A stretch of 64,000 nt of DNA. It comes from Patescibacteria group bacterium (lineage in GTDB: Bacteria > Patescibacteriota > Patescibacteriia > CAIXNZ01). The notes below the pieces were generated by a model. That model did not search any database, was not told where the DNA came from, and saw only the letters and a program-made list of their open reading frames with translations. Location of the stretch: assembly GCA_028714455.1 (NCBI GenBank), contig JAQTMG010000003.1:39834-103833 (forward strand). Reading direction: 5' to 3'. The translations under genes were made by a program, and so were the position numbers. Every line of letters begins with the position of its first letter. Positions within the stretch are counted from its first letter, which is position 1. Below are positions 5,030 to 61,415 of this stretch, piece after piece.

Positions 5030-5104
5030 CGCGGGGTAGAGCAGTGGCAGCTCGCCGGGCCCATAACCCGGAGGTCGCGGGTTCAAATCCCGCCCCCGCA
5101 ACCA
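5030..5104 (+). tRNA. Initiator tRNA-fMet (anticodon CAT)
   Basis: Cloverleaf with a C1:A72 mismatch, three G-C pairs in the anticodon stem, loop CCCATAA, T-arm GCGGG-TTCAAAT-CCCGC and an encoded CCA. It is near-identical in architecture to E. coli tRNA-fMet. Confidence 0.85.
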
Positions 5105-5307
5105 GATTCATGGTGGGGGTTTCCGCCGTAGGCGGACCCGCCTCTGGCGGGCAAATCCCGCCCCCGCAACCAGATTCATGGTGGGGGTTTCCGCCGTAGG
5201 CGGACCCGCCTCTGGCGGGCAAATCCCGCCCCCGCAACCAGATTCCTGGTGGGGGTTTCCGCCGTAGGCGGACCCGCCTCTGGCGGGCAAATCCCGCCCC
5301 CGCAACA
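5105..5307 (+). repeat. Three tandem 68-nt direct repeats, each ending in the last 20 nt of tRNA-fMet (AAATCCCGCCCCCGCAACCA)
   Basis: Units at 5105-5172, 5173-5240 and 5241-5307. The third has an A>C change and lacks the CCA. Each unit is GATTCATGGTGGGGGTTTCCGCCGTAGGCGGACCCGCCTCTGGCGGGC plus the tRNA 3' end. Confidence 0.9.
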
Positions 5308-5327: not shown

Positions 5328-5400
5328 GATCCGGTAGCTCAGTTGGTAGAGCACCTGCCTTTTAAGCAGGGGGTCCTGGGTTCAATCCCCAGCCGGATCA
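5328..5400 (+). tRNA. tRNA-Lys (anticodon TTT)
   Basis: GATCCGG acceptor, GCTC/GAGC D-stem, anticodon loop CTTTTAA, T-arm CTGGG-TTCAATC-CCCAG; no CCA encoded. Confidence 0.9.
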
Positions 5401-5606
5401 TAGGTTAATGGCTTGCCAAGACTGGCAAGCTTTTTGCGACCCCCTGCTTTATCAAAGCTACACAAAGAAGTCCTGCCTGCCCGCCGTAACGAAGTGAAGG
5501 CGGGGGTTCAATCCCCAGCCGGATCATAGGTTAATAGCTTGCCAAGACTGGCAAGCTTTTTGCGACCCCCTGCTTTATCAAAGCTACACAAAGAAGTCCT
5601 GCCTGC
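5401..5606 (+). repeat. Duplicated ~100-nt segment (tRNA-Lys 3' half + 80-nt downstream unit containing a terminator hairpin)
   Basis: The 80-nt unit TAGGTTAAT(G/A)GCTTGCCAAGACTGGCAAGCTTTTTGCGACCCCCTGCTTTATCAAAGCTACACAAAGAAGTCCTGCCTGCC appears at 5401-5480 and 5527-5606. Between the two copies a second copy of the tRNA 3' end (GGGGTTCAATCCCCAGCCGGATCA, 5503-5526) is preceded by a CCCGCC..GGCGGG hairpin. Confidence 0.85.
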
Positions 5607-5637
5607 CTCTAGCGAAGGCAGACCGGATTATTATAAG

Positions 5638-5664
5638 AATTCCCCCGTCACGGGGAATTTTTTG
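5638..5664 (+). terminator. Rho-independent terminator
   Basis: ATTCCCCCGTCACGGGGAAT hairpin followed by TTTTTT. Confidence 0.55.
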
Positions 5665-5751
5665 ATATTGACATTATCAAAATAATGTGCTAGAATTATT
5701 AATTAGTTGACAGAATCAAAACCAAAAATAAAATCCAAAAGGAGGGAAAAG

Positions 5752-6456
5752 ATGAGGACATTTACCGTAATCACTTCTTTAACCGACGGAGTTCTGAAGC
5801 ATGAAATTTTCGATTTCCTCATCCCCAAAAAGAATGAGGAACGGGCGGGAGAATGGTTTCTCCCTTTCGGTTCCACGCGGATTCCTCTTGGCAAGAGGGA
5901 TCTGGACAAGCTCCTGCAAACTGGCTGGAAGAAAATCCCGTGTTCTGCCAGGGGTGAGAGAAGGTGGAGCGGCCAGAAATCGGCCCAACCGCTGATCTGC
6001 GACAAGTGCGGAGAAAAATATGGCAACTGGCAGCCTTACAAAATCGGATTCGAATGCTTTCACCCGGCAAACGGCGAGATGGTCTTGAGCGACAAAATCA
6101 TCAGTAACGCCTTCTGCCTAAAACTGCGCGACAAGTACACGGAAGAGTACAGCGGTAAGCTTCTGCTTGTCGCGCCTGACAAGGAGCAGGAGGAAGCGCT
6201 CATTCACTGGGATCTCTCGGATCATGCGGCGCTCTTCGAAGATGGGCGAATCATAGCCCAAGACACCTGGCCGTTTCGAACCAACCATTATCTCGTTGCT
6301 CTGAAGCCAGGTTCGAGCCTGCCCGCCATCAAGTCTCATGAACAATCCGCCGCTTACACTCTGGTTCTTTCTTTCGACGGCAACAGCGTCCACGTGACCA
6401 AAAAAGAGTTGGTTGCGAGACAAGAAGTCTCTGACCAGGCTCAAATCTCGGCCTAA
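5752..6456 (+). CDS. Hypothetical protein with Cys cluster (CDKCGEKYGNW..ECFHP), in a GC-rich island
   Basis: AGGAGGG RBS before ATG 5752. Local GC content is clearly above the window average and no known family was recognised. The ORF track gives a longer form from 5707. Confidence 0.5.
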   Translation: MRTFTVITSLTDGVLKHEIFDFLIPKKNEERAGEWFLPFGSTRIPLGKRDLDKLLQTGWKKIPCSARGERRWSGQKSAQPLICDKCGEKYGNWQPYKIGFECFHPANGEMVLSDKIISNAFCLKLRDKYTEEYSGKLLLVAPDKEQEEALIHWDLSDHAALFEDGRIIAQDTWPFRTNHYLVALKPGSSLPAIKSHEQSAAYTLVLSFDGNSVHVTKKELVARQEVSDQAQISA

Positions 6457-6465
6457 GACCAAAAA

Positions 6466-6503
6466 AACAAAAGCCCCTCACTTCCTAGAGCGAGGGGCTT
6501 TTA
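6466..6503. terminator. Bidirectional rho-independent terminator between convergent genes
   Basis: AAAAGCCCCTCAC..GAGGGGCTTTT hairpin flanked by A-run and T-run. Confidence 0.6.
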
Positions 6504-6511
6504 AAATTATA

Positions 6512-7063
6512 TTATTCCATTATAAATACGGCGGCGGCCAGAACAGTGGTCCAAAGTCCGTCTTTATTCCCTTGAGCCGATTGGAAAAAATTAGTGGTTT
6601 TAAAAATATGTCCGCTGGCCTTATATTCTTGTTCCCTCTCCTCCCAGGCCTTGCTGGAATCAAATTCCACGCCCAGTGTCGTAGCTAACATGGTGGCCGC
6701 CACATCCTCGGCATACTCTCCTGATTTTTCGCCGACCTCACCCGTGGCATGATGTTCAGAAAGATAACCATAGTGATTTTCCCTATCTTTTGGCACGGCC
6801 AGACCAATCGCCGCTGAAATTAATCGGTTTGGCTCATTTGTCTCCATGCGCGCCAAAACGCAAAATGTTATTTCGCCTGCTTTTAATAAATTTAAACCGT
6901 CGTCTTTGGGAATCATTTTACATTGAGGCGGAAAGATACTGGAGACTGTCACCAGATTGCATTTTTCAATGCCCGCGTTGCGCAACGCTGATTCAAAAGA
7001 GGCTAGACGATCTTTGTGAATGCCAACGCCTTTGGTGAAAAAAACTTTTGTCGGAATTAACAT
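6512..7063 (-). CDS. pdaD: Pyruvoyl-dependent arginine decarboxylase (PvlArgDC family, archaeal/chlamydial type)
   Basis: 183 aa, the size of PvlArgDC. It starts [14 protein letters not shown] and contains the self-cleavage site motif [10 protein letters not shown] (Ser-Ser serinolysis site of PdaD/AaxB). GC content is elevated. Confidence 0.6.
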
Positions 7064-7199
7064 TTCTTCGAGATTAAAAATTAAATCAATTTAATTATAG
7101 AACTCTCGGCCAAAATATCAATAGTTTTCGCCCTGTGGATAATTAAAAAAACGGCAAACATAAAACCGTCTCGCTAAGCGGGGCGGTTTTTTTATTATA

Positions 7200-9620
7200 T
7201 TATTTTTTATTTTTCTGCAAAATTATTTTTTTCACTTCCAGCCAGAAAATTATCACGAAACTCGAAAGCAGAATCAAGACAAACTCCATAAAAGTGATGG
7301 ACGCCAACTTAAATTCTGAATTTATGACTGGCACACCCAAAATCAGAAATAGAAACACAATCACGGAAACAAGCCACCAATTCATTGTCTTGTTGGTAAA
7401 GACGCCTAACTTGTAGAGCGGAATGGTTTCTGACCTTGAGACATAAGCCAAAATTATGTGACCCAAGATCCAGGCCGTAAAAGCATATGTCTGCAAATGA
7501 ACGATGCTGGCGTCATGCGCGATAGCATAAAGATAAGAAGCCATCACAGCCACAAATAAAGTGATGCCGCCGATAAAAATCTGCGAAATCAATTTGGCGT
7601 CAAAGATCTTGGCCTTGGGATTTCGCGGCGGTCGGTTATAAATAGTCTTTTCAATCGGTTCGCCCACAAATCCGGCTGAAGCGGCCAGGTCCATAAAAAG
7701 TTCTAGCAGGATTATTTGAATGGGAGAAAATGGCAGGGGCAAGCCGAACAAAATAGGGATAAACAGAACGGAAACCAGGGCGACTTTAACTGAAAGATAA
7801 TATCTGACGCTTTTAACCAAGTTGTCATAAAATTTTCTGCCTTCGAAAATCGCGTGCGAGATTGTAATAAAATTATCGTCCGCCAAAACAACGTCAGCCG
7901 CTTCCTTGGCCGCATCAGTTCCTTTGATGCCCATGGCAATGCCAATGTCAGCGCCCTTGAGCGCCAAAGCGTCATTAATACCGTCTCCGGTGACTGCCAC
8001 TACCTCTCCGCCAGCTCTTAACGCCTTGACCAGACGATACTTGTGCTCCGGGAAAGTGCGCGCAAAAACATTAACTTCTTTGGCGACTTTTTCCAGTTCC
8101 TCGTCCGATAGCTTATCAAGGTCAGCTCCGATTAAAACCTTATCGGCTTCGATGCCGACGCTTTTGGCGATGAAAGCCGCGGTCAGCGGATGATCGCCCG
8201 TGACCATGACTGTTCTGATGCCTGCTTTTCTGGCGGTCTCTATCGTATCTTTAACTCCTTGGCGCGGCGGATCTTCCAATGATATCAGACCCACAAATTC
8301 TAAATTCTTTTCCAGTTCACCCACCGATTTATTTTTGTCTGACGCGTTAATTTCTTTTTTGGCCACGCCGATGACTCTCCTGCCTCTTTCCGTCTCTCGC
8401 TGCAAGGCCTTTCTTATTTCATCAAAACCGTCTCTGCACATCGCCAAAACTTCTTCTGGCGCGCCGCTCTCATAAAGAAAAAATTTATTGTTATTTTCGC
8501 GCAAAACGCCTTTTGTTTTTCGGTCATTGCCAAAATTTCTTTCGGAAATAATTTCTCCCAGGTTATCCAGCTTTAGTTCCTTTGCTTTTTGAATGATGGC
8601 GCTGTCAGTCGGAGTCAAGCTGATTTCAGTTGTCGCCAGATAGGCGGCTAATAAAATTTCCTCCTGCTTATTTTCCGGAAAGACTGAAGCGACGTGCATT
8701 TTACCTTCGGTAATGGTACCCGTTTTATCAGTCAGGATTACCGTCGCGTCACCCAGCACTTCGGCCGCTTTAATTTTTTTTACCAAAAAATTTTGTTTGG
8801 AAAGCCGATAAGAGCCAAGACCCAAAATCATTGTGATCAAAATCGGAAACTCCTCGGGAATAATGGCAAAAGCCAGAGCCAGACCGGTCAGGACCATGGT
8901 CTTGGTGTCCTGCCCGCGCAAAAAACCAATGACAGGGATTAAAGCGGAGAATAAGAGCGCGAACCAAACCAATTTGCCCACCAAATCTTTCATGGCCAGC
9001 TGCAGCGGCGTCTTGGGTTCTTTGATTTCCTGCGCCATCAGAGTTATCTTGCCCATTTTGGTGTCAGCGCCGGTTTTTTTTACCTCGCCCTTGCCTTCTC
9101 CGGCCACCACCAGCGTGCCGGCAAAAATTTCATCGCCCGTCTTTTTCTCAACGGCAAATGATTCGCCGGTCAGCGACGACTCGTCAACCTGCAGACTGTA
9201 TGAAGTCAAAATAATTCCGTCGGCCGAGATGCGAGTGCCTGGCGCCAAAATCAGAACATCACCGATGACAACTTCAAAAGTATCAATCTCGGTAATTTTT
9301 TCTTCGCGCAAGACCCTGGTTTTGGGTTCAGAAATTTTTGACAAAGCCGCGATAGCTTTCTTGGCGCGATATTCATTCCAGACCTCGACAAAAACCAAAA
9401 GCATAATCACGATAAAAATCGTAATCGCGTCTTCGACTTTGCCCCAAATGGAATAAATGACACCCACGAAAATCAAAAGCAAAATCATGGGCTCGGTTAT
9501 TTCTTCCTTGGCAATACCCAAAAATCTTACCTCTTTGTGTTTTTTTAAAAGATTGGGGCCGTATTTTTCCAGACGATTTTTTGCCTCGGCCGTTGTCAGG
9601 CCGGTATTTTCCAACGCCAT
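7200..9620 (-). CDS. Cation-transporting P-type ATPase (P2-type, Ca2+/Mg2+-like)
   Basis: 806 aa with the DKTGTITEG phosphorylation motif, VTGDHPLTA, GDGINDALALKGADIGIAMG and 8-10 TM helices. Confidence 0.9.
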   Translation of the reverse strand: MALENTGLTTAEAKNRLEKYGPNLLKKHKEVRFLGIAKEEITEPMILLLIFVGVIYSIWGKVEDAITIFIVIMLLVFVEVWNEYRAKKAIAALSKISEPKTRVLREEKITEIDTFEVVIGDVLILAPGTRISADGIILTSYSLQVDESSLTGESFAVEKKTGDEIFAGTLVVAGEGKGEVKKTGADTKMGKITLMAQEIKEPKTPLQLAMKDLVGKLVWFALLFSALIPVIGFLRGQDTKTMVLTGLALAFAIIPEEFPILITMILGLGSYRLSKQNFLVKKIKAAEVLGDATVILTDKTGTITEGKMHVASVFPENKQEEILLAAYLATTEISLTPTDSAIIQKAKELKLDNLGEIISERNFGNDRKTKGVLRENNNKFFLYESGAPEEVLAMCRDGFDEIRKALQRETERGRRVIGVAKKEINASDKNKSVGELEKNLEFVGLISLEDPPRQGVKDTIETARKAGIRTVMVTGDHPLTAAFIAKSVGIEADKVLIGADLDKLSDEELEKVAKEVNVFARTFPEHKYRLVKALRAGGEVVAVTGDGINDALALKGADIGIAMGIKGTDAAKEAADVVLADDNFITISHAIFEGRKFYDNLVKSVRYYLSVKVALVSVLFIPILFGLPLPFSPIQIILLELFMDLAASAGFVGEPIEKTIYNRPPRNPKAKIFDAKLISQIFIGGITLFVAVMASYLYAIAHDASIVHLQTYAFTAWILGHIILAYVSRSETIPLYKLGVFTNKTMNWWLVSVIVFLFLILGVPVINSEFKLASITFMEFVLILLSSFVIIFWLEVKKIILQKNKK

Positions 9621-9672
9621 AAAAAATTTATTTATTTTTTATAAAATGAGGCGAGTTTTTTATGCTCGCCTC

Positions 9673-9936
9673 TTAAGTAACAACTTTTACTTCATCCTCG
9701 GAAAACGATAGTCCTTTCAGCTCTCTGGGGCCAAGATTTTCTTCATTGAGATATTCAACAATATCCGGATCTAATCTTCTTTTCGCCTCTTCTATGGTGA
9801 CCTCGAAGACCGTCCTTTGTTTGCCTAAAACCACGCTTGCCACAAAAATCTTGCCAATGATCCCTTTCTTTACGCCTTCGGGCAGGTCCCTTCTGTTCAC
9901 CCTGACTATTTCAATGCGCGTAATCTTGTTTCCCAA
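9673..9936 (-). CDS. Hypothetical small protein
   Basis: 87-aa ORF with plausible codon usage (MGNKITRIEIVRVNRRDLPEG..); no family recognised. Confidence 0.35.
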   Translation of the reverse strand: MGNKITRIEIVRVNRRDLPEGVKKGIIGKIFVASVVLGKQRTVFEVTIEEAKRRLDPDIVEYLNEENLGPRELKGLSFSEDEVKVVT

Positions 9937-11191: not shown

Positions 11192-11322
11192 GGCGAAAAC
11201 GGACATTATCGTCGTTGTAGAGACGGGGCATACCCTGTCTCTACGTCATGTATCATATGACGATAATGTAGAGACGCGGTGCACCGCGTCTCTACGGCGT
11301 TTTACGCCGTCCGTTTTCGCCC
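11192..11322. repeat. Structured palindromic repeat (REP/MITE-like), copy 1, double-core
   Basis: Outer 13-bp inverted repeat GGCGAAAACGGAC..GTCCGTTTTCGCC enclosing two 28-bp palindromes: GTAGAGACGGGGCATACCCTGTCTCTAC (11217-11244) and GTAGAGACGCGGTGCACCGCGTCTCTAC (11268-11295). Confidence 0.85.
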
Positions 11323-11405: not shown

Positions 11406-11966
11406 TTACGAAACTACGGAACGAGCGCGCAGAATGTCACCGGCACTGCCAGGGTCGCAGCAGCCGATGTACAATCCGCCACCGCCCCATCCCACGCCCG
11501 GCACACCACCATCGGAATCGCAGGAGCCAGAACAGAGTGTCACGTTGTTGATATCAAGATGCTTTCCTGCCGGCCGGTTCCAGTTATAGAAGAGCTCCAT
11601 GACAAGGCGCTCTTCCAGGGTGATGCCGTTGATGCCGCGTTTCTCGCACTCTTTGGCAGAGAGGTTCTTGTTTTCCTTGTCTGCCTCAATTCGGTCTCGC
11701 AGCCAGATGGCATAGGTCTTGTCGGTCTTGCGTACCGAAATAACGGTGTTAAGGTCATCTCTGTACTTCCATGACGTGAAGTGCTCTTTGCACTTATCAA
11801 AGAGACGGTTTGCGGTCAGGCCTGCGGCCATGATGAGTAGCCAGTTGAAGCCCTTCCGCTTTCCGGGCAGAACGATCTTTGAGAAGTCGGCCTTGATGCC
11901 GAAAACTTCTTTGTAGAAACGCTGCCATTCGGCGATCAACTTACTATATTTCCCCTTTTCCGGCAT
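11406..11966 (-). CDS. Hypothetical protein with Gly/Cys-rich C-terminus, in a GC-rich region (likely horizontally acquired)
   Basis: GGAGGG RBS before ATG 11966. Local GC content is far above neighbours. The C-terminus reads CSGSCDSDGGVPGVGWGGGGLYIGCCDPGS. A terminator hairpin GCACCTTTTGC-TAG-CAAAAGGTG lies at 11346-11375. Confidence 0.5.
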   Translation of the reverse strand: MPEKGKYSKLIAEWQRFYKEVFGIKADFSKIVLPGKRKGFNWLLIMAAGLTANRLFDKCKEHFTSWKYRDDLNTVISVRKTDKTYAIWLRDRIEADKENKNLSAKECEKRGINGITLEERLVMELFYNWNRPAGKHLDINNVTLCSGSCDSDGGVPGVGWGGGGLYIGCCDPGSAGDILRARSVVS

Positions 11967-34203: not shown

Positions 34204-34999
34204 TCAAAAACTGAACTTCCGAGATAGGACAACGCGCAAGTCGTCATCGGAGCAATCGACCAAGCCGCCGCTGACAATGAGGCCACCGGAACCAAAGACG
34301 CCGACACCGACGCGGTTGTCATTGGAAGCCGCCGTAGCACCCCAATGGTACCAGTCTTCCGCAATTCGCTCGCCGTTATTGACCATAAAAATGGTCAGGA
34401 TGGCTTCGGCAAAGGCTGCCTCATGACAACGTTCGTAGCCCGCGCCCAGTTCGGTTATCGCTTTTCCCTGCTCCACCCAATTCATGTTGGCGAACTGGCC
34501 GCGGAAGTTGATGAGGTAATAGCCGGTTTGGGGCCTGAAAGTCGCCCACTTGTCCTCGTCGCTCTCGAGCCACCAGTCGTCGTTGGCAAAGGTGTCAAAA
34601 CAGGGCTGTTCGGCCCTATTAACGCCGCGCTTTTCTCTCTGCTCGCGCAGAGAAAGGCCATTGATGTAAACTAGACGCCAATCTTCGCCTTGTTCATTCT
34701 CTTTAGCCGCGTGACGCAAGGTTGCCTTGGAATAGAGGACTTTATCGTCTTTTGGCGACTCCAGTCCCCAGACCCCGGCAGATTGCTTTGCGACAATAAC
34801 ATTATCCCTCCCAAAAAGACGTAAAATAAACTCCCAATCTGGATATTCCCTGGCCTCAAAGGGATTTTTGTGGTCAATCAATGCCTGCAGATGGTCCGTA
34901 TCCAAAGAACCTCGTTTGAGCTGCGAAAAAATTTCCGCCATTTGGTTAATCACCTTTTGACCTGCCCTTACGGACAAATCTTCCTGACGATCTTTCATC
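34204..34999 (-). CDS. Hypothetical protein in a strongly GC-rich island (likely horizontally acquired)
   Basis: GGAGG RBS before ATG 34999 (MKDRQEDLS..). GC content is far above flanks and no family was recognised. A terminator hairpin GTCCCG..CGGGAC lies at 34136-34162. Confidence 0.45.
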
Positions 35000-35247
35000 G
35001 CCTTTCCTCCTTTGCCTTTTTCAAGGCATGTTTTTTCGCCCATACGGACGATGTTTTGTGGTTAGTTAACCAGTTACGCGTTTTTATCTCAAATTTACAA
35101 AGAACTTATTGATTTAAAAATGTATCACTTTTTTATAAAGATGTCAATTAATACAGATGCGCTAACTAGCTGGATCGCGCGAACACTTTAGTGTGAGCCA
35201 GTCTAGTCGACACTAAAGTGTCTCTGCGAGTAGTGGCGTAAACGCAA

Positions 35248-43912: not shown

Positions 43913-43999
43913 GGGGCGAAAACGCTTTCACGTAAAAAACGCTGCCGTAGAGACAGGGTATACCCTGTCTCTACTTTTTATTCAAGGCGTTTTCGCCCC
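43913..43999. repeat. Structured palindromic repeat, copy 3
   Basis: GGGGCGAAAACGC..GCGTTTTCGCCCC outer IR around core GTAGAGACAGGGTATACCCTGTCTCTAC (43947-43974). Confidence 0.85.
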
Positions 44000-44030: not shown

Positions 44031-45256
44031 TTAATATTTCCCAATATTTTTTACGTAAGTTCCTGCTTCGCCCGAATAACGAATCAAAAAAACGTCATAA
44101 AGAACCGCGTCTACCTCTTGCCACAAATTCTCGGCCGTTTCTCTAATAATGAAACACTGCATGCCGCTTAGCTTAAGATACAACGGCCAAATTTTTGTCT
44201 CAAAATCATCCTTTTGTTCAAGCGCTTTTTTTAGGTTAAAAATGGTCAGGCGCAAACGCAACTTAAACTTCCGAGTATTGCGCACCTGGCCATCAACCAC
44301 ATTCAGTCCTAACGTGTGCAGAATATGCCCTCGTCTGGCAAAATATGATTTATGCAAATAGTAGCGCTGATAATAGGCTCCTTTATTTTGCCACCAACCA
44401 TCTGGGTCAGGCGCCTCTTTCAGTTCATAACCCCTTTTAGCGATACGAAAAACCGCTGAAATAACGGGCGCATGCCACACAATGCAACCGCGATATTTCT
44501 CAATATCTTCCTGACCCGCTGGTTTCACAAAGTAATCGTCAGCGGAGGGATCATCTGGCCGTTCTTCGCCGCGCTCAATGTGTCTTTTTTTTGTTTCCGG
44601 CCAAAATTCTGGCGCTGTGATAAAAATGTTGTCCGCGTAACGTACGTAAGTACCCCTGATGTTCTTGGCTAGCTCGGAAAGCTCGTAATCAAAGGGTTCA
44701 AAACAAAAATCAAACAAGCGCGGGCTGGTTGGCGCGCCTTGTGGCAAACCAAAAGCCGGTAGCCCCTTTTTCTTTTGATTAAACCAGGTCGTCAAACAGG
44801 TCAAATAATAAGAGGCGTAATAACCGTACTTTTTTGACTTGAAAAAATTGAAGACCGCGCGACCGCTTGTCGAAGGAAAAGCATCCTTCACGTCAGTCGT
44901 AAAAACCGCCTGGTCTGCCTTAGCAATAGCCAATGCCGCCTCTTTGACTCCACCGCCAGAAAATCCATAGACATTTCTATGACGGTCCAGCGGCTCAAGA
45001 ATATTTTTGTTGACAGCCCGCTGAATTGTCATCAAATCAGGGTGCGGAATCTGTAAAATTCTTCTGCCGCCGCTTCTTTTAGCAATTGTAATGGTTGAAT
45101 AAAGCCATGGACTCCTGACAATTGCCGCCCACAAAATTCTACGGAATTTTTCGAAATCATTAAAAGGATAATTCAGTTCAGCGAACAAATACCAGGCTGC
45201 TTTTCTGCCTGATTCCCTTAATAAGGGATTTTTAATGCGCTCACGCGATTTCAACA
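44031..45256 (-). CDS. Stand-alone reverse transcriptase (retron/DRT-like; motif C = YADN)
   Basis: RT motifs in order: 1/2 RRILQIPHPDLMTIQRAV, A FTTDVKDAF, B' GLPQGAPTSPRLFD, C YVRYADNIF. The proposed start is TTG 45256, 8 nt after AGGAGG; the ORF track's ATG 45383 would add 42 aa lacking an RBS. GC content is elevated. No maturase, endonuclease or other fused domain was recognised. Confidence 0.75.
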
Positions 45257-45294
45257 ATATTATCACCTCCTTTCCATGTTTTTTGTTTTCAAAG

Positions 45295-45695
45295 AAAAGG
45301 GAGGGGTAAATTCCCCTCCCACCGCTGGTTACTCGCGAATCGCAAGCTGTGCGTGTACCGATCAAGAACCGGGTGATTTGCATATTGCCGTCAGAATTCT
45401 GACAGCCCCTTTCGGCTATTTTAGGATCTCTTAGGGTTCCGGCAATAAAGCTAACTGTCTTGATCTAATTTCGGATTTTAGGGTTAGGGAGGGGTGCAAG
45501 ATTTATACATTTACTTCAAGTTTTGGTTATCCCCTCTCCTTCTAATTAAACCGAATTACCGAGCCAGTTACCTTCGCCGAAAATTATCTAGAGAAGGATA
45601 CGCAGTTTATGTACCTAACTCAAGTTTCGGCTAATCCTTCTCTTTATCCTATTTGGCCTCAAAGCTCGCTAACCAGCGAATGATAATACTTTAGT
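45295..45695 (-). ncRNA. Candidate RT-associated structured ncRNA (about 380 nt) directly upstream of and co-oriented with the RT
   Basis: Minus-strand promoter-like TTGACT-17 nt-TAAAGT at 45716-45688. Two paralogous long hairpins have conserved loops (AAACTTGA..GTA.ATAAA) and different, individually complementary stems (GAGAAGGAT/ATCCTTCTC versus GGAGAGGGG/CCCCTCC). There is a 14-bp palindrome GTCAGAATTCTGAC. The 3' end is a GC-rich hairpin GGGAGGGG-AATTTA-CCCCTCCC followed by TTTTCTTTG just before the RT RBS. Confidence 0.4.
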
Positions 45696-57098: not shown

Positions 57099-60000
57099 TT
57101 AGGGCTTCACTAAGGCGTTGGCATAAATGCCGCCGCGGAAGATGACATCATCCTCAACATAGTTACCACCATTGTAATTGATACTCCAATTCAGGTTAGG
57201 TGTTGATGCAGCAGCGTCGTTTAACAGAAGCTGGACTGAATCACCAAGGTTAGTCATAGCAGCGGTATTACCGTAAATATACAGTTTCTTGGTCTGACCC
57301 TTTGGTATGACAAAGTCCTTCTGGGCAAACAAGAATGCAGCAGCAGCAGGAGTACAGATATCTGTTGCGGCCAGAGTGGCATTATCCAAGATATTACCAT
57401 CTTCATCCTTCAAAACAAGGCCGGCGCTAGGTCCAGCGGTGCAGTGAGAAGAGATAGTAATCTTCAGTGTGTTTGCGCCAACGACTGGAAGAGTTGGACC
57501 ATCGAAAGTAACATCATCATTATTATCAGCCTTAACATTGAAGATAGCTAACAAAGTGTTAGCACCTGGTACTAGAGCGCCTGATGGCGAACTAGCATTC
57601 AAGCTGAAGTATGGTCGTGACTCATAAGCGAAATGGGTAGCAGGAATTGCTGCTTGCGCATTGGCTGTCTGTTGGCCAGATGACTTACCAGTTACATGGA
57701 TATCACCGGCGGCAAAAACTCGAGCCTGGATAGGATCGGCGTTACCTACGGTAACAGCATCAACCGGAGCGACATCAATTTTAACTGTCAAGGTAACACT
57801 GCCATTGGCCGGAATAGTAACTGTGTTGTCAGCCAAGACAAAGGTGGCTACAGATCCGCCAGAAGCAACAGCAACAGGATCGGTGATAGCACCGCCGTCA
57901 GCTCTTGAACTTGAATATAGATACCAGCTAGTTGCTACTGGTCCAAGAAGCGCTGTGGTTCTGTTAGTTCTAGCCCAAGTACCAGTTGTACCAACGACTG
58001 TAACAACAGTAGCAGATGACACAGTAAAGTTATTAACGCCGAAAGTAGTAACCGTGAAAGGACCGCTGCCTAATACTGGAGTAGAATCGGTTCCGCTCAA
58101 TCTGACAGTGTCACCGGTTGCGAGACCATGACCAGCGGAAGTAATAACTGGTAATGCTGTCCAGGTGCCTGCCGTAGCTGATGTTACACAACCAACGGGG
58201 GCGGCATAAGTAAAGGTAGCAGCGCCAGTTGTTGTAGCAGCAAATGTACCATTACATGTGCCATAAGCAGCGCCATTGACTGTAATGTTTATTGTAGAAC
58301 CAACAACTATTGGCAATGTGTGGTTAACAGCAGAAGTTACAGTTACTGTGCCAGCGGCCGAAACGATACCAGTAGTAGCACCAGTTGTTAAGCTGATTGC
58401 AGTGATAGCACCATTAGTACCTGTATCAGTCACCCTTACATCGTCAATGTCTAAATCCTCAACATTGTTAGCCTGTAATTTATAGACGGCCACAGTTTGC
58501 TTTGTTGAGCTAGCTATTAGCAATGATTTGCTTGGTGATGAAGCGTCTAATGATGTAGTTAAGATACCGGCAGCCGAATCAGTCATTTGCTGACCAGCGC
58601 CGCTATAAGCTACTGCAGGTGTGTTGCCTGTAGATTTGCCCGAAGCGGTTACGGCAGAAACATTCATGGTATGTCTATTTGGAGTAACAGTGTCACCCAG
58701 AGTAGACAAATCACCAACCACCGCAATCTTTACATAGCTACCCTTTGGCACAGTAATAACTTGAGTCAAAGAAATGGCTTTTGTAGCGGGGCTAACACCA
58801 GCAGCTGGCTGTTCATTGTTAGAGACTTTGGTCTCATACGCGTCGCCGCGTGTTGAGCTAGCTGGAGTTAAATCAGCCCAGATTGATAAATTCTGAATCT
58901 CTCTAAAGTCAGCACCTACTACAACGCTAGTAAAGGTGTCTCTAACTGTAACTGCGGAAACTCTCACATCTTCGCCAGAAGCAGTTGCGTCTAATGAAGC
59001 AGTTGCCCAGACAAAGTTTTGAGTACCGACAGCCACAGTGCGAGCGGCGGGTTGAGTTAAAGTTGCAGCACTCAAGGCAACAGCCAATATAGTTTGGACA
59101 TTGCCGTTTGCTGCAGCTGTAGAGATCGTCATGTTGTCCCTAGTGTTCATGCCAGTAGCAGTGATGTCAGTATTTGGAGTAGCAATATCAGCGCGAATAG
59201 TGCCGACAGCAGCTACGCCTGCGTTAGCAATAATATCAGTCTTAAAGGTGAATTTATGAGTACCTGTTGGCACAATATATGTATCTGTAAATACAGCGCA
59301 AACGCCAACAAAGCCGCAAGTAGCGCCAGTAGCATCATTGGTTATTGCTCTTGGACCAGCAATCGTGCTGCCAGTTTCATCAACCAATTTAGCGTTTGTT
59401 ATATTTGCCGGTAATAGACCTCCACCTAGAGTCAATTTAACTATAGTTCTTGTAATTTTGGCTGCTTCACCTCTAACTTCAAAAGCCCAAGTCGTCAAGG
59501 GCTGTTCTGAAGCTTGAGTGATATTGCCAGTTGCAGGAGAAGAGACATCCTTAGTTATATTTAAGATGCCGGTATTAACTGTTTGGTCAGTACCCTTACC
59601 ATCCCAACCATTAAGTATGACTGGAGTAAGGTAGAAACCATAAGTATTACCCTTAACAGTAACTAGGGCGTCTGTACCATCGGTTAAATCAAGGTTCAGA
59701 GTATTACCCGAACCGCTGACCACGTCGGTGTAGACCTGGAAAATATGTTTTGCGCCCTTTGGAATCACTACGTTCAAGGTACTAAAAGTAACTCTTGAAT
59801 TAGCATCAAAGGCAGCGACAGTTCCCAGAGTTCTACCCTCTGTCAAGCTGTACAATTCAATGTTGGCATAATCAACATTGCTAGCCGTACCAGCTTCTAA
59901 CAAGCTGATGGTCTCAACTGTTAGATCTTCGCCGGGACCAGCATTAACTTCAAATTGAGAAACCTGGACCCTCTTAGAGCCAGCGTCTGGCTTGCTGTCT

Positions 60001-61037
60001 GGCGGCAAAGCGTTTTTATCAACGCTAACAGAGCCTAAATCAGCCACCAAAACTACACTCATATAATTTCCCATAACAGGGAAAGCGCCAGTTACGGTGC
60101 CAGCATCCAAAACAACATCAGAAGCTGTTGAAATACCTAGAGCGATTGTATTGCCCCAAGGTGCCAAGCCAATACTTGCTCTGATAAAATAAGAAACAGA
60201 GGTATTGGCAGGGATAGATAATGATGGCACAAAAGTAACTAAAGCTTTGCTATTTGAACCCAAGCTAGCTACGCTACCAACAGTTGCGCCATTCATAGCC
60301 ACTAATTTGATGTTTGAAACATCATCATTAGAGCTTAAGCCAGTGCGTGTGATGTACATTGACTTAACTGTAGCAGCGGTATTGCCTGCGCTTAAAGTAA
60401 TTTTAGTAAAATTAGCAGAAGCAGTATCAGCTACCGTAGAAGCAGCTGGAGTATCAGAAGCCAAAGAAACATTTAGATTGCCACCTGTTGTAACTGAACC
60501 AGCTAAGCCCTTATCAACGTTAATTGATTGAGCGCCAGCTGTTGCGGCAGATGGAGAATAATCAGAAGCATTGTTTATCGGTGCGCCAACAGTGTAGTTG
60601 GTGAAAAATGCGTCTGACACATCCTCAACCTTGCTTGTCCAGGTTGCTCCGTACAAAGTAGAAGCAATGGATTCAGTAGTAATCCATCTTAATTGACCAT
60701 TAGCGGCTACGGCATAAACTTTGGGGTCAGTGGTAATTTTTACCATCTTAACGCCTGGTTTATAAGTAACGTTGCCTCCAATAGCGATAGTAGCTAATTC
60801 GCCGTCAGTGATTGTTCTCACTGTGGAAAAATCAGCGTACCATGTCTTGTATGTCTTCTCATTTGGGAAAACATATCTCTTGCCATCAGCACCGTAGTAA
60901 TAAACGGCTGGTAAAGATGCCTTGATCAAATCGCCCGAGCTGAAAGTTACAGCTTGCGCGCTTGGAACAAAGCCTGCCAAACCGATTGACCACATAATGG
61001 TCACCACCACAATACTGACAGTAAAAAACTTTTTCAT
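57099..61037 (-). CDS. Giant secreted surface protein/adhesin (Thr/Ala/Gly/Val-rich beta-sandwich repeats) with N-terminal shared ~115-aa domain
   Basis: Signal peptide MKKFFTVSIVVVTIMWSIGLAGFVPSAQA (start moved to this Met; the ORF track extends to 61121). It has an N-terminal AVYYYGADGKRYVFP block and roughly 1200 aa of low-complexity Ig-like repeats. Confidence 0.6.
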   Translation of the reverse strand: MKKFFTVSIVVVTIMWSIGLAGFVPSAQAVTFSSGDLIKASLPAVYYYGADGKRYVFPNEKTYKTWYADFSTVRTITDGELATIAIGGNVTYKPGVKMVKITTDPKVYAVAANGQLRWITTESIASTLYGATWTSKVEDVSDAFFTNYTVGAPINNASDYSPSAATAGAQSINVDKGLAGSVTTGGNLNVSLASDTPAASTVADTASANFTKITLSAGNTAATVKSMYITRTGLSSNDDVSNIKLVAMNGATVGSVASLGSNSKALVTFVPSLSIPANTSVSYFIRASIGLAPWGNTIALGISTASDVVLDAGTVTGAFPVMGNYMSVVLVADLGSVSVDKNALPPDSKPDAGSKRVQVSQFEVNAGPGEDLTVETISLLEAGTASNVDYANIELYSLTEGRTLGTVAAFDANSRVTFSTLNVVIPKGAKHIFQVYTDVVSGSGNTLNLDLTDGTDALVTVKGNTYGFYLTPVILNGWDGKGTDQTVNTGILNITKDVSSPATGNITQASEQPLTTWAFEVRGEAAKITRTIVKLTLGGGLLPANITNAKLVDETGSTIAGPRAITNDATGATCGFVGVCAVFTDTYIVPTGTHKFTFKTDIIANAGVAAVGTIRADIATPNTDITATGMNTRDNMTISTAAANGNVQTILAVALSAATLTQPAARTVAVGTQNFVWATASLDATASGEDVRVSAVTVRDTFTSVVVGADFREIQNLSIWADLTPASSTRGDAYETKVSNNEQPAAGVSPATKAISLTQVITVPKGSYVKIAVVGDLSTLGDTVTPNRHTMNVSAVTASGKSTGNTPAVAYSGAGQQMTDSAAGILTTSLDASSPSKSLLIASSTKQTVAVYKLQANNVEDLDIDDVRVTDTGTNGAITAISLTTGATTGIVSAAGTVTVTSAVNHTLPIVVGSTINITVNGAAYGTCNGTFAATTTGAATFTYAAPVGCVTSATAGTWTALPVITSAGHGLATGDTVRLSGTDSTPVLGSGPFTVTTFGVNNFTVSSATVVTVVGTTGTWARTNRTTALLGPVATSWYLYSSSRADGGAITDPVAVASGGSVATFVLADNTVTIPANGSVTLTVKIDVAPVDAVTVGNADPIQARVFAAGDIHVTGKSSGQQTANAQAAIPATHFAYESRPYFSLNASSPSGALVPGANTLLAIFNVKADNNDDVTFDGPTLPVVGANTLKITISSHCTAGPSAGLVLKDEDGNILDNATLAATDICTPAAAAFLFAQKDFVIPKGQTKKLYIYGNTAAMTNLGDSVQLLLNDAAASTPNLNWSINYNGGNYVEDDVIFRGGIYANALVKP

Positions 61038-61415
61038 AAGTAAATTCTTTAAATTGCTCTCGATCCAGAATCTGGCTGCTGGAAAATAAGGTTTTGACAT
61101 CCGTCTTCGCTTCGCCTCCAAGCCAACTCGGAGTCGACCTTTGCCAAAGCAAATGGGATCCCTATAGTCCGCTTAACCAAACCGTGAAAAGAGAGTGTTA
61201 ATTAGCTTCTTACCTCGCGGTAAGAAAATCCTCGGCCTTGCGGCCTCGGTTTTACTCACACCTTTCGGTATGAGCCAGCCCCAAACCGTCTGGTTTAGGG
61301 GTGGATGAACCACACTGCGATAATCACCAAATTCCAAGCATCAAATCCCAAACAATATGGATAGTAGTTATAACAGTGTGATTCACCCAAATATATTTAA
61401 TTATTAATTTTCAAT

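Follow-up and report, generated by a model that had tools for sequence, protein, structure and literature searches.

In a 64-kb stretch of a Patescibacteria (candidate phyla radiation, CPR) metagenome-assembled genome (MAG), hereafter the window, two genes converge across a 55-bp spacer beside a pair of tRNA genes: an uncharacterized gene on the plus strand (5752..6456), here called the orphan gene, and a gene for a pyruvoyl-dependent arginine decarboxylase (PvlArgDC) on the minus strand (6512..7063). The locus raises the question of whether the two genes arrived together, as an earlier note had proposed when it read both as GC-rich and as one foreign island. We conclude that the decarboxylase is a native housekeeping gene of this Patescibacteria lineage; that of the claimed island only the orphan gene behaves like an acquired element; and, with moderate confidence, that the orphan gene is a mobile cassette resembling phage morons, which are lone genes that bring their own promoter and terminator and have a base composition foreign to their surroundings. 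Taken as a whole, a native decarboxylase and an independent moron-like cassette converging on one terminator strikes us as a reasonably probable reading of the locus. Both proteins are already in NCBI, from one 110,823-bp MAG contig, as MDD5341258.1 ("arginine decarboxylase, pyruvoyl-dependent") and MDD5341257.1 ("hypothetical protein").

Composition and position of the two genes

Judged against the 63 long open reading frames (ORFs) of the window (mean GC 0.405, standard deviation (sd) 0.050; mean GC at third codon positions, GC3, 0.441, sd 0.080), just one gene of the pair is compositionally unusual. The orphan gene has a GC of 0.52 and a GC3 of 0.62, about +2 sd and the second-highest GC3 in the window, with a high GC at first codon positions (GC1 0.54) and a codon-bias rank of 8/64. 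The decarboxylase gene is native by the same measures: its GC of 0.451 (+0.9 sd) equals that of the adjacent P-type ATPase gene (0.452), its GC3 of 0.440 is the window mean, its codon-bias rank is 44/64, and its tetranucleotide distance is below average (z -0.3 to -1.3). Thus the claim that both genes are GC-rich stands for the orphan gene but not for the decarboxylase.

A comparison with related loci (numbered with the prefix L) shows that the decarboxylase gene keeps its place among genes of the division and cell wall (dcw) region. In L005 the order is MurD-FtsW-MurG-MtaB-89aa-ATPase-ArgDC-tRNA-Lys-tRNA-Met-MurE, with a decarboxylase 89% identical to that of the window; L006/L007 (84%) are alike except that MtaB is missing at that point, a 136-aa ORF is added, and a 229-aa orphan-family gene lies between the decarboxylase and tRNA-Lys; and L017 (Ca. 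Falkowbacteria; 80%) reads MurG-MtaB-ArgDC-tRNAs-MurE, with neither the ATPase nor the orphan gene. The decarboxylase is 80-92% identical to its relatives, compared with 68-86% for neighboring core proteins, and this combination of constant place and high identity identifies it as a stable, constrained resident of the clade's dcw region. One locus weighs against such constancy: in L004 the orphan gene is joined directly to a 92-aa gene and MtaB, and neither decarboxylase nor ATPase is present at the locus.

Within the dcw region, rearrangements are concentrated in the MurG-MurE interval. The P2-type ATPase gene and an 87-aa gene (window 7200-9936) are variable inserts of this interval, present in L005 and L006 and absent from L017; the ATPase is a neighbor of the decarboxylase in some relatives only, and is not its functional partner. 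L017 also carries the tRNA pair inverted as compared with the other loci.

A single horizontally acquired, GC-rich two-gene island integrated beside the tRNA pair has several observations behind it: the pair is found side by side and convergent in the window, L003, and L006/L007; the tRNA 3′-end duplications that the earlier note had described do adjoin them; and the close, interleaved CPR and archaeal relatives of the enzyme, discussed below, suggest that it has moved between domains. Other observations speak against it, specifically, i) GC3, codon usage, and tetranucleotides of the decarboxylase gene are native; ii) the decarboxylase keeps its position in L005 and L017, both without the orphan gene; iii) the orphan family occurs without a decarboxylase in at least seven other contexts (L004, L008, L011, L015, L016, L023, and L025-27); and iv) no integrase or flanking repeat was found, and each gene has its own promoter-like site which, together with the terminator hairpin after the ATPase gene, makes them separate monocistronic units. 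With one gene native in composition and fixed in position, and with the two not traveling together, we have abandoned the two-gene island as very unlikely.

The same distribution bears on the idea that the orphan protein is a partner of the decarboxylase, whether a regulator, an antizyme-like inhibitor, or a processing factor. Convergent adjacency with a common terminator does recur in three lineages, but L005, L017, L019, and L020 encode the decarboxylase without the orphan gene, most family members have no decarboxylase within 5-8 kb, and the Methanocaldococcus jannaschii PvlArgDC processes itself without helpers. Since either gene is often found without its neighbor, we consider a functional link unlikely, and of all the explanations weighed here a partnership is the least probable. 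Nor was a conserved partner gene of any other kind found for the orphan family.

Identity and role of the decarboxylase

The earlier note had recognized the minus-strand product as a PvlArgDC from its size, its N-terminus, and its VTVSS|IF motif, and profile search and alignment bear this out. The protein, 100% identical to MDD5341258.1, matches PF01862 over all of profile positions 1-161/161 (E 8.4e-60; 201.8 bits against a cut-off of 22.7) and scores 130.7 bits with TIGR00286, above the cut-off of 106.95. Ser41-Ser42, Asn36, and Glu103 align with Ser52-Ser53, Asn47, and Glu109 of the M. jannaschii enzyme (PDB 1n2m, 2qqd), whose processing and active-site roles we take to be those known from the M. 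jannaschii structures. Two details weigh somewhat against the assignment: the score with NF009064 is 204.5 bits for a cut-off of 207, 2.5 bits short, and Glu24 stands where M. jannaschii has Asp35. The alignment leads us to infer that self-cleavage of the 183-aa proenzyme would take place between Ser41 and Ser42, turning Ser42 into the pyruvoyl cofactor, and that the processed enzyme would convert cytoplasmic arginine to agmatine, which may be used as a polyamine or as a polyamine precursor.

Among more than 8000 PvlArgDC homologs scored, the named sequences nearest to the window enzyme belong to CPR bacteria (Falkowbacteria, Patescibacteria) and to DPANN (Diapherotrites, Parvarchaeota, Aenigmarchaeota, Nanoarchaeota, and Nanohaloarchaeota) archaea (Woesearchaeota, Pacearchaeota); they are 71-81% identical and the groups interleave, and pairwise identities among P0043, P0051, P0077, P0094, and L019 give no split of the CPR and DPANN enzymes by domain. 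Contig L019, where RtcB and Archease are neighbors, appears to be genuinely archaeal. The interleaved identities therefore suggest that this PvlArgDC subfamily moved between CPR bacteria and DPANN archaea at some time. Exchange of polyamine decarboxylase genes between the same groups has been proposed for the unrelated SpeD-derived enzymes (PMC10407285), to which the present enzymes would add a case; our literature search found no paper linking PvlArgDC with CPR bacteria.

As to the role of the enzyme, no antiporter of the APC (amino acid-polyamine-organocation) type, agmatinase, agmatine deiminase, or aminopropyltransferase was found among the annotated genes of the window, where most long ORFs were scanned or recognized by sequence; its multi-pass membrane proteins are a P-type ATPase, FtsW, MraY, a PMT_2-like protein, GtrA, and a 17-segment protein without a Pfam match. 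None of the four lies next to the decarboxylase gene in L005, L006, L017, L019, or L020 (three CPR lineages, one further Patescibacteria, and one archaeon). Archaeal PvlArgDC is biosynthetic. Given that no antiporter is near, and that pairing with an arginine/agmatine antiporter is specific to the chlamydial AaxABC system (PMC2720952), we assign the enzyme to cytoplasmic agmatine synthesis, most likely for polyamine supply. The missing antiporter to which the earlier note had drawn attention is thus missing indeed from the 64 kb, but is not an anomaly.

The enzyme might instead take part in arginine/agmatine exchange, for acid resistance or for energy, with a transporter gene elsewhere in the genome. 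Exchange is a known role of AaxB in Chlamydia (PMC2720952), and the idea gains something from the facts that the search for polyamine genes and transporters covered 64 kb of the genome, which counts against a purely biosynthetic role, and that an Aa_trans-type permease is encoded 6.7 kb from the decarboxylase gene in L020. Nevertheless, with no APC-type transporter in the window or beside the gene in the five related contexts, and with the gene lodged among cell-wall and tRNA-modification housekeeping genes that are equally conserved, we think an exchange role unlikely. The decarboxylase itself is a routine gene, annotated already; its interest lies in agmatine synthesis being conserved, and probably important, in a CPR lineage with very little biosynthesis.

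The orphan gene and the origin of its cassette

NCBI calls the orphan protein as 249 aa from TTG 5707, but all close homologs begin MRTFTVIT or MKAFTVIT, and these starts together with an AGGAGGG ribosome-binding site argue that ATG 5752 (234 aa) is the true start and that the NCBI call is over-extended. We regard the ORF as a real gene, furnished with a promoter-like site, a ribosome-binding site, and a terminator of its own. Its family is tiny: a word-seeded search of 5.8 billion proteins returned three matches including the protein itself, three were also returned when 1.84 billion cluster representatives were searched exhaustively with a profile, and a six-sequence profile extended the family to 42 proteins of 152-274 aa; scans of genome contigs and of metagenome contigs gave two loci each, the metagenome loci being on contigs already in our set. 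As the earlier note had found for the plus-strand protein, no known family is matched: none of the 42 members has a meaningful match in Pfam, PHROGs, PADLOC, or NCBIfam, or any match to PDB sequences. A structured RNA was rejected as the cause of the GC peak, since Rfam finds two tRNAs only and the ORF is conserved across the 42 proteins; also rejected was the idea that the window's reverse transcriptase belongs to a diversity-generating retroelement with the orphan gene as its target, no template/variable repeat pair involving the gene.

The structure prediction that the earlier note had called for gave a confident AlphaFold2 model from the 42 sequences (mean predicted local distance difference test, pLDDT, 81.9; a model from three sequences was useless at 39.5), for which no fold neighbor was found. 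The protein is cytoplasmic and, in the model, all-beta. In the family alignment a conserved beta-rich core is accompanied, in a subset only, by an insertion bearing the Cys cluster, and most of the 42 members are without it; the insertion is the most confident part of the model (pLDDT 90-95). Because C64, C83, C86, and H104 are invariant in the six-sequence alignment (C102 being peculiar to the window's subfamily), this optional insertion probably contains a Cys-Cys-Cys-His (CCCH) zinc site and would bind metal.

The distribution of the orphan gene among close relatives is patchy. It is absent from L005 and L017 and present in L003, L004, and L006/L007; in L003 (60% identity) and L006/L007 (44%) its place is again that between tRNA-Lys and the decarboxylase, whereas L004 (56%) has another arrangement, and L002 has a family member beside an rve transposase. 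The orphan proteins are 44-60% identical across relatives as compared with 68-92% for core genes. Measured from the tRNA-Lys terminator hairpin to the stop codon of the decarboxylase gene, the window is about 0.85 kb longer than L005, and its nucleotide similarity to L002, L003, and L004 sets in at 5656-5667, right after a short hairpin (5640-5657) that marks the left edge of the cassette.

Comparison of gene and flanking GC at 14 loci establishes a GC excess as a family trait of the orphan gene in most low-GC hosts. The excess is +0.235 in L016 (0.61 vs 0.38), +0.18 in L011, +0.16 to +0.18 in L025-27, +0.14 in L006, +0.13 in L004, +0.12 in L002, and +0.10 in the window, and about 0 in L023 and L024. 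L023 is a 59-kb contig of GC 0.45-0.50 with many small same-strand ORFs, and the GC of its orphan-family gene matches that of the contig; three of its ORFs match PHROG families (phosphoadenosine phosphosulfate reductase, holin, and, weakly, a family of unknown function).

A second recurrent trait is position. In four independent contexts a tRNA gene has the family at its 3′ side: tRNA-Lys (352 nt from the tRNA 3′ end in the window, 118 nt in L006), tRNA-Leu (349 nt, L008), tRNA-Arg (512 nt, L026/27), and tRNA-Asn (147 nt, L015, where it is the end of a two-gene paralogous pair that the tRNA faces); in L011 and L016 no tRNA lies close by. Assuming about 45 tRNA genes/Mb, a random gene would lie within 600 nt of a tRNA 3′ end with a chance of a few percent, so that adjacency in 4/7 informative contexts is unlikely to be accidental (estimated P ~2e-4). 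In L026 a large serine recombinase, an HNH nuclease, a DNA methyltransferase, and a helix-turn-helix protein are encoded just upstream of the tRNA.

Two of these loci have further features. In L008 the distant family member P0124 is bracketed, downstream of tRNA-Leu, by short-repeat arrays of about 300 nt (7660-7966 and 8769-9256; AAGCGTAAA.. then TTTTCGCTTTTAG..), which form direct repeats of about 105 nt and 75% identity around the gene. In L015 a 409-aa ORF (6503-7732) directly downstream of the family member has a weakly similar stretch (hmmsearch E 8e-5, 12-sequence set), which suggests a tandem paralog next to tRNA-Asn.

The tRNA adjacency, the recombinases, the GC match with a phage-like contig, and the patchy distribution all point in the same direction, toward a mobile cassette. 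The cassette (about 5660..6505, plus strand) would comprise promoter, ribosome-binding site, 234-aa ORF, and terminator, and would lie downstream of tRNA-Lys and short of the stop codon of the convergent decarboxylase gene; it would be a moron-like gene from a mobile element, probably a phage, of a kind repeatedly dropped or exchanged at tRNA 3′ flanks, and an origin of this kind would account for a GC that has stayed unlike that of the low-GC hosts. As for the protein, our best guess, which is pure conjecture, is that it binds nucleic acid or protein in a zinc-dependent manner and acts in element-host conflict.

The main rival to a mobile cassette is a vertically inherited, fast-evolving, lineage-specific host gene whose GC is held up by selection on amino acids, mRNA stability, or expression. 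Such a gene would be expected to stay at one tRNA-Lys/decarboxylase site, as the orphan gene does in the window, L003, and L006/L007, and its absence from L005 could be a simple loss; fast divergence is shared by other small hypothetical genes nearby (33-41% identity); the GC1 of 0.54 reflects residues with GC-rich codons; and no mobility gene lies in the window neighborhood. It is the third codon position that vertical descent accommodates poorly: GC3 is 0.62-0.66 in two lineages whose orphan proteins are only 44% identical, while that of the hosts is 0.32-0.44, toward which synonymous sites should have drifted, so that long vertical residence is hard to reconcile with the data, and the persistence of GC3 is in keeping with a mobile pool of higher GC from which the gene is repeatedly delivered or its alleles replaced. 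Further, the ribosomal protein genes of the window do not have a raised GC3, and in unrelated genomes the more distant members of the family turn up next to four tRNA species, next to recombinases, and on a phage-like contig of matching GC. We regard vertical descent as possible but doubtful.

We wish to stress that several observations besides the shared site count against mobility: i) no integrase, transposase, or flanking attachment-type (att) repeat bounds the cassette in the window, no recombinase lies within 5 kb of the orphan gene, and no att-type repeats were found around the family genes of L006, L015, and L027; ii) the tRNA-Lys 3′ repeat occurs twice ahead of the orphan gene and not at all behind it; iii) no relative was found among IMG/VR viral contigs, GenBank phages, or PLSDB plasmids; iv) the GC excess is small in L008 (+0.04) and L015 (+0.05); and v) the phage nature of L023 is judged from two annotated PHROG matches and one weak one in the 5.8 kb seen. 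A bolder version of the mobile reading is that these genes constitute a new minimal mobile unit of ultra-small bacteria, a GC-rich cassette of one gene, complete with promoter and terminator, encoding an unseen all-beta fold with an optional CCCH zinc ribbon, delivered or exchanged at tRNA (Lys, Leu, Arg, Asn) 3′ flanks from a phage or mobile pool, and acting in phage-host or symbiont-host conflict; this we offer as a tentative proposal, to which we give rather less credence than to the reading as a whole. Of the two genes the orphan gene is nonetheless the more useful lead, for it belongs to a tiny family with no known fold relative, a consistent GC spike, and a preference for tRNA flanks. 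To our knowledge few mobile elements have been characterized in CPR bacteria, and the orphan gene, if mobile, could be a handle on gene flow and conflict systems in this group.

Layout of the locus and likeness to known systems

The features of the locus are collected in Table 1. The convergent arrangement and the common terminator that the earlier note had described are confirmed. In L004 the orphan homolog is followed by a similar AAAGCCCCTC..GAGGGGCT terminator hairpin, and equivalents of the orphan promoter-like site can be found by eye in L004 (TTGACA-17-TACAAT) and L006 (TTGACT-17-TATGAT), both with a TGn extended -10.

Table 1. Features in and around the convergent gene pair (window coordinates)
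Feature	Position	Strand	Basis or remark
tRNA-Met (CAU)	5030..5104	+	ARAGORN; Rfam RF00005, 63.9 bits
Three tandem 68-nt repeats	5084..5306	+	Copies 99-100% identical
tRNA-Lys (UUU)	5328..5400	+	ARAGORN, Rfam; 3′ end faces orphan-gene cassette
Tandem duplication of tRNA-Lys 3′ end and downstream terminator hairpin	5378..5607	+	104 nt, spacing 126
Short GC hairpin TTCCCCCGTCACGGGGAA and T-run	5640..5657	.	Resembles tRNA-Lys/ArgDC terminator of L005, which lacks the orphan gene
Promoter-like TTGACA-17-TAGAAT with TG (extended -10)	5668..5696	+	11/12 consensus positions
Ribosome-binding site AGGAGGG	5740..5746	+	5 nt ahead of ATG 5752
Orphan gene, 234 aa	5752..6456	+	Rare uncharacterized family
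Zinc-ribbon-like insertion, about residues 60-105	5929..6066	+	Predicted ligands C64, C83, C86, H104 (CPxR..CxxCG..HP)
Bidirectional intrinsic terminator common to both genes	6468..6503	.	15-pair stem, 7 GC pairs, T-runs both sides
PvlArgDC proenzyme, 183 aa	6512..7063	-	PF01862, TIGR00286
Ser41-Ser42 codons, predicted self-cleavage site	6938..6943	-	Alignment to M. jannaschii enzyme
Promoter-like TTGATA-16-TATAAT for decarboxylase	7094..7121	-	11/12 consensus positions
Terminator hairpin after P-type ATPase gene	7162..7190	.	Separates ATPase from decarboxylase unit
P2-type cation ATPase	7200..9620	-	Pfam and NCBIfam matches

Each 68-nt repeat consists of the last 21 nt of tRNA-Met (ending ..ACCA; ..CCCGCAACCA) and 47 nt more, and is predicted to fold into a tRNA-like minihelix in which an 8-bp stem closes two GC hairpins and leaves a free ACCA tail (dG -35.5, z -2.5); such repeats were not found in L005, L006, or L017, and could be a recent slippage product or pseudo-tRNA elements. 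The copies of the tRNA-Lys duplication (5378-5481 and 5504-5607) each comprise the last 23 nt of tRNA-Lys and 81 nt more, and the duplicated hairpin GCTTGCCAAGACTGGCAAGC is homologous to a single copy after tRNA-Lys in L006; since just 22 nt lie between the copies, the duplication is not an att pair around an insert.

Elsewhere in the window, two single genes are as GC-rich as the orphan gene or more so. One, 11406-11966 on the minus strand, is a 186-aa orphan ORF without a Pfam or NCBIfam match that has the highest GC (0.535), GC3 (0.668), and codon bias of the window; it lies between MurG and MtaB, where L005 and L017 carry no gene, and may be a second GC-rich single-gene insertion. The other, 34204-35043 on the minus strand (GC 0.515), is a 279-aa ORF without a Pfam match. 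A 450-aa reverse transcriptase (RVT_1, E 6e-12) is encoded at 44031-45383 on the minus strand, and no long template/variable repeat pair was seen in the window. Palindromic hairpins at 11258-11298, after MtaB, and at 43944-43984, by the reverse transcriptase gene, share the motif GTAGAGAC...GTCTCTAC and may be a recurring terminator or repeat element. The 1340-aa ORF at 57099-61121 (minus strand), with a GC at second codon positions of 0.515 against a GC3 of 0.346, a tetranucleotide distance z of up to 4.5, and one N-terminal hydrophobic segment, probably encodes a repetitive surface protein.

Among known systems, the window decarboxylase most resembles M. jannaschii PdaD (PF01862, TIGR00286; 1n2m, 2qqd) in its full-length family match, in the conserved Asn, Ser-Ser, and Glu residues, in being a small single-domain proenzyme, and in having no transporter partner, which leads us to expect a biosynthetic role here too. 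It differs in the weakness of the pairwise match (E 3e-9 over 112 residues), in its length (183 aa vs 165 aa, with a longer C-terminal part), in having Glu for Asp35, and in belonging to a tight CPR/DPANN subfamily of 71-89% identity. With chlamydial AaxB it shares being a bacterial PvlArgDC of a reduced genome; unlike AaxABC, however, neither an AaxC antiporter nor an AaxA porin is encoded in the window or the related loci, and the context is one of cell-wall and tRNA genes.

The orphan cassette differs from the genomic islets targeted to tRNA genes in having no integrase and no bracketing direct repeat, and in measuring only about 0.85 kb, or one gene; it resembles them in lying at the 3′ side of a tRNA gene, with tRNA 3′-end duplications near, and in varying among relatives. 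In comparison with phage morons, the window copy lies outside any prophage, between a tRNA and a housekeeping gene, and has no match in phage or viral collections; but like a moron it is a cassette with its own strong promoter-like site and terminator and a GC well above that of its flanks, it is patchy among close relatives, and its family recurs in a phage-like contig (L023) and beside a recombinase (L026).

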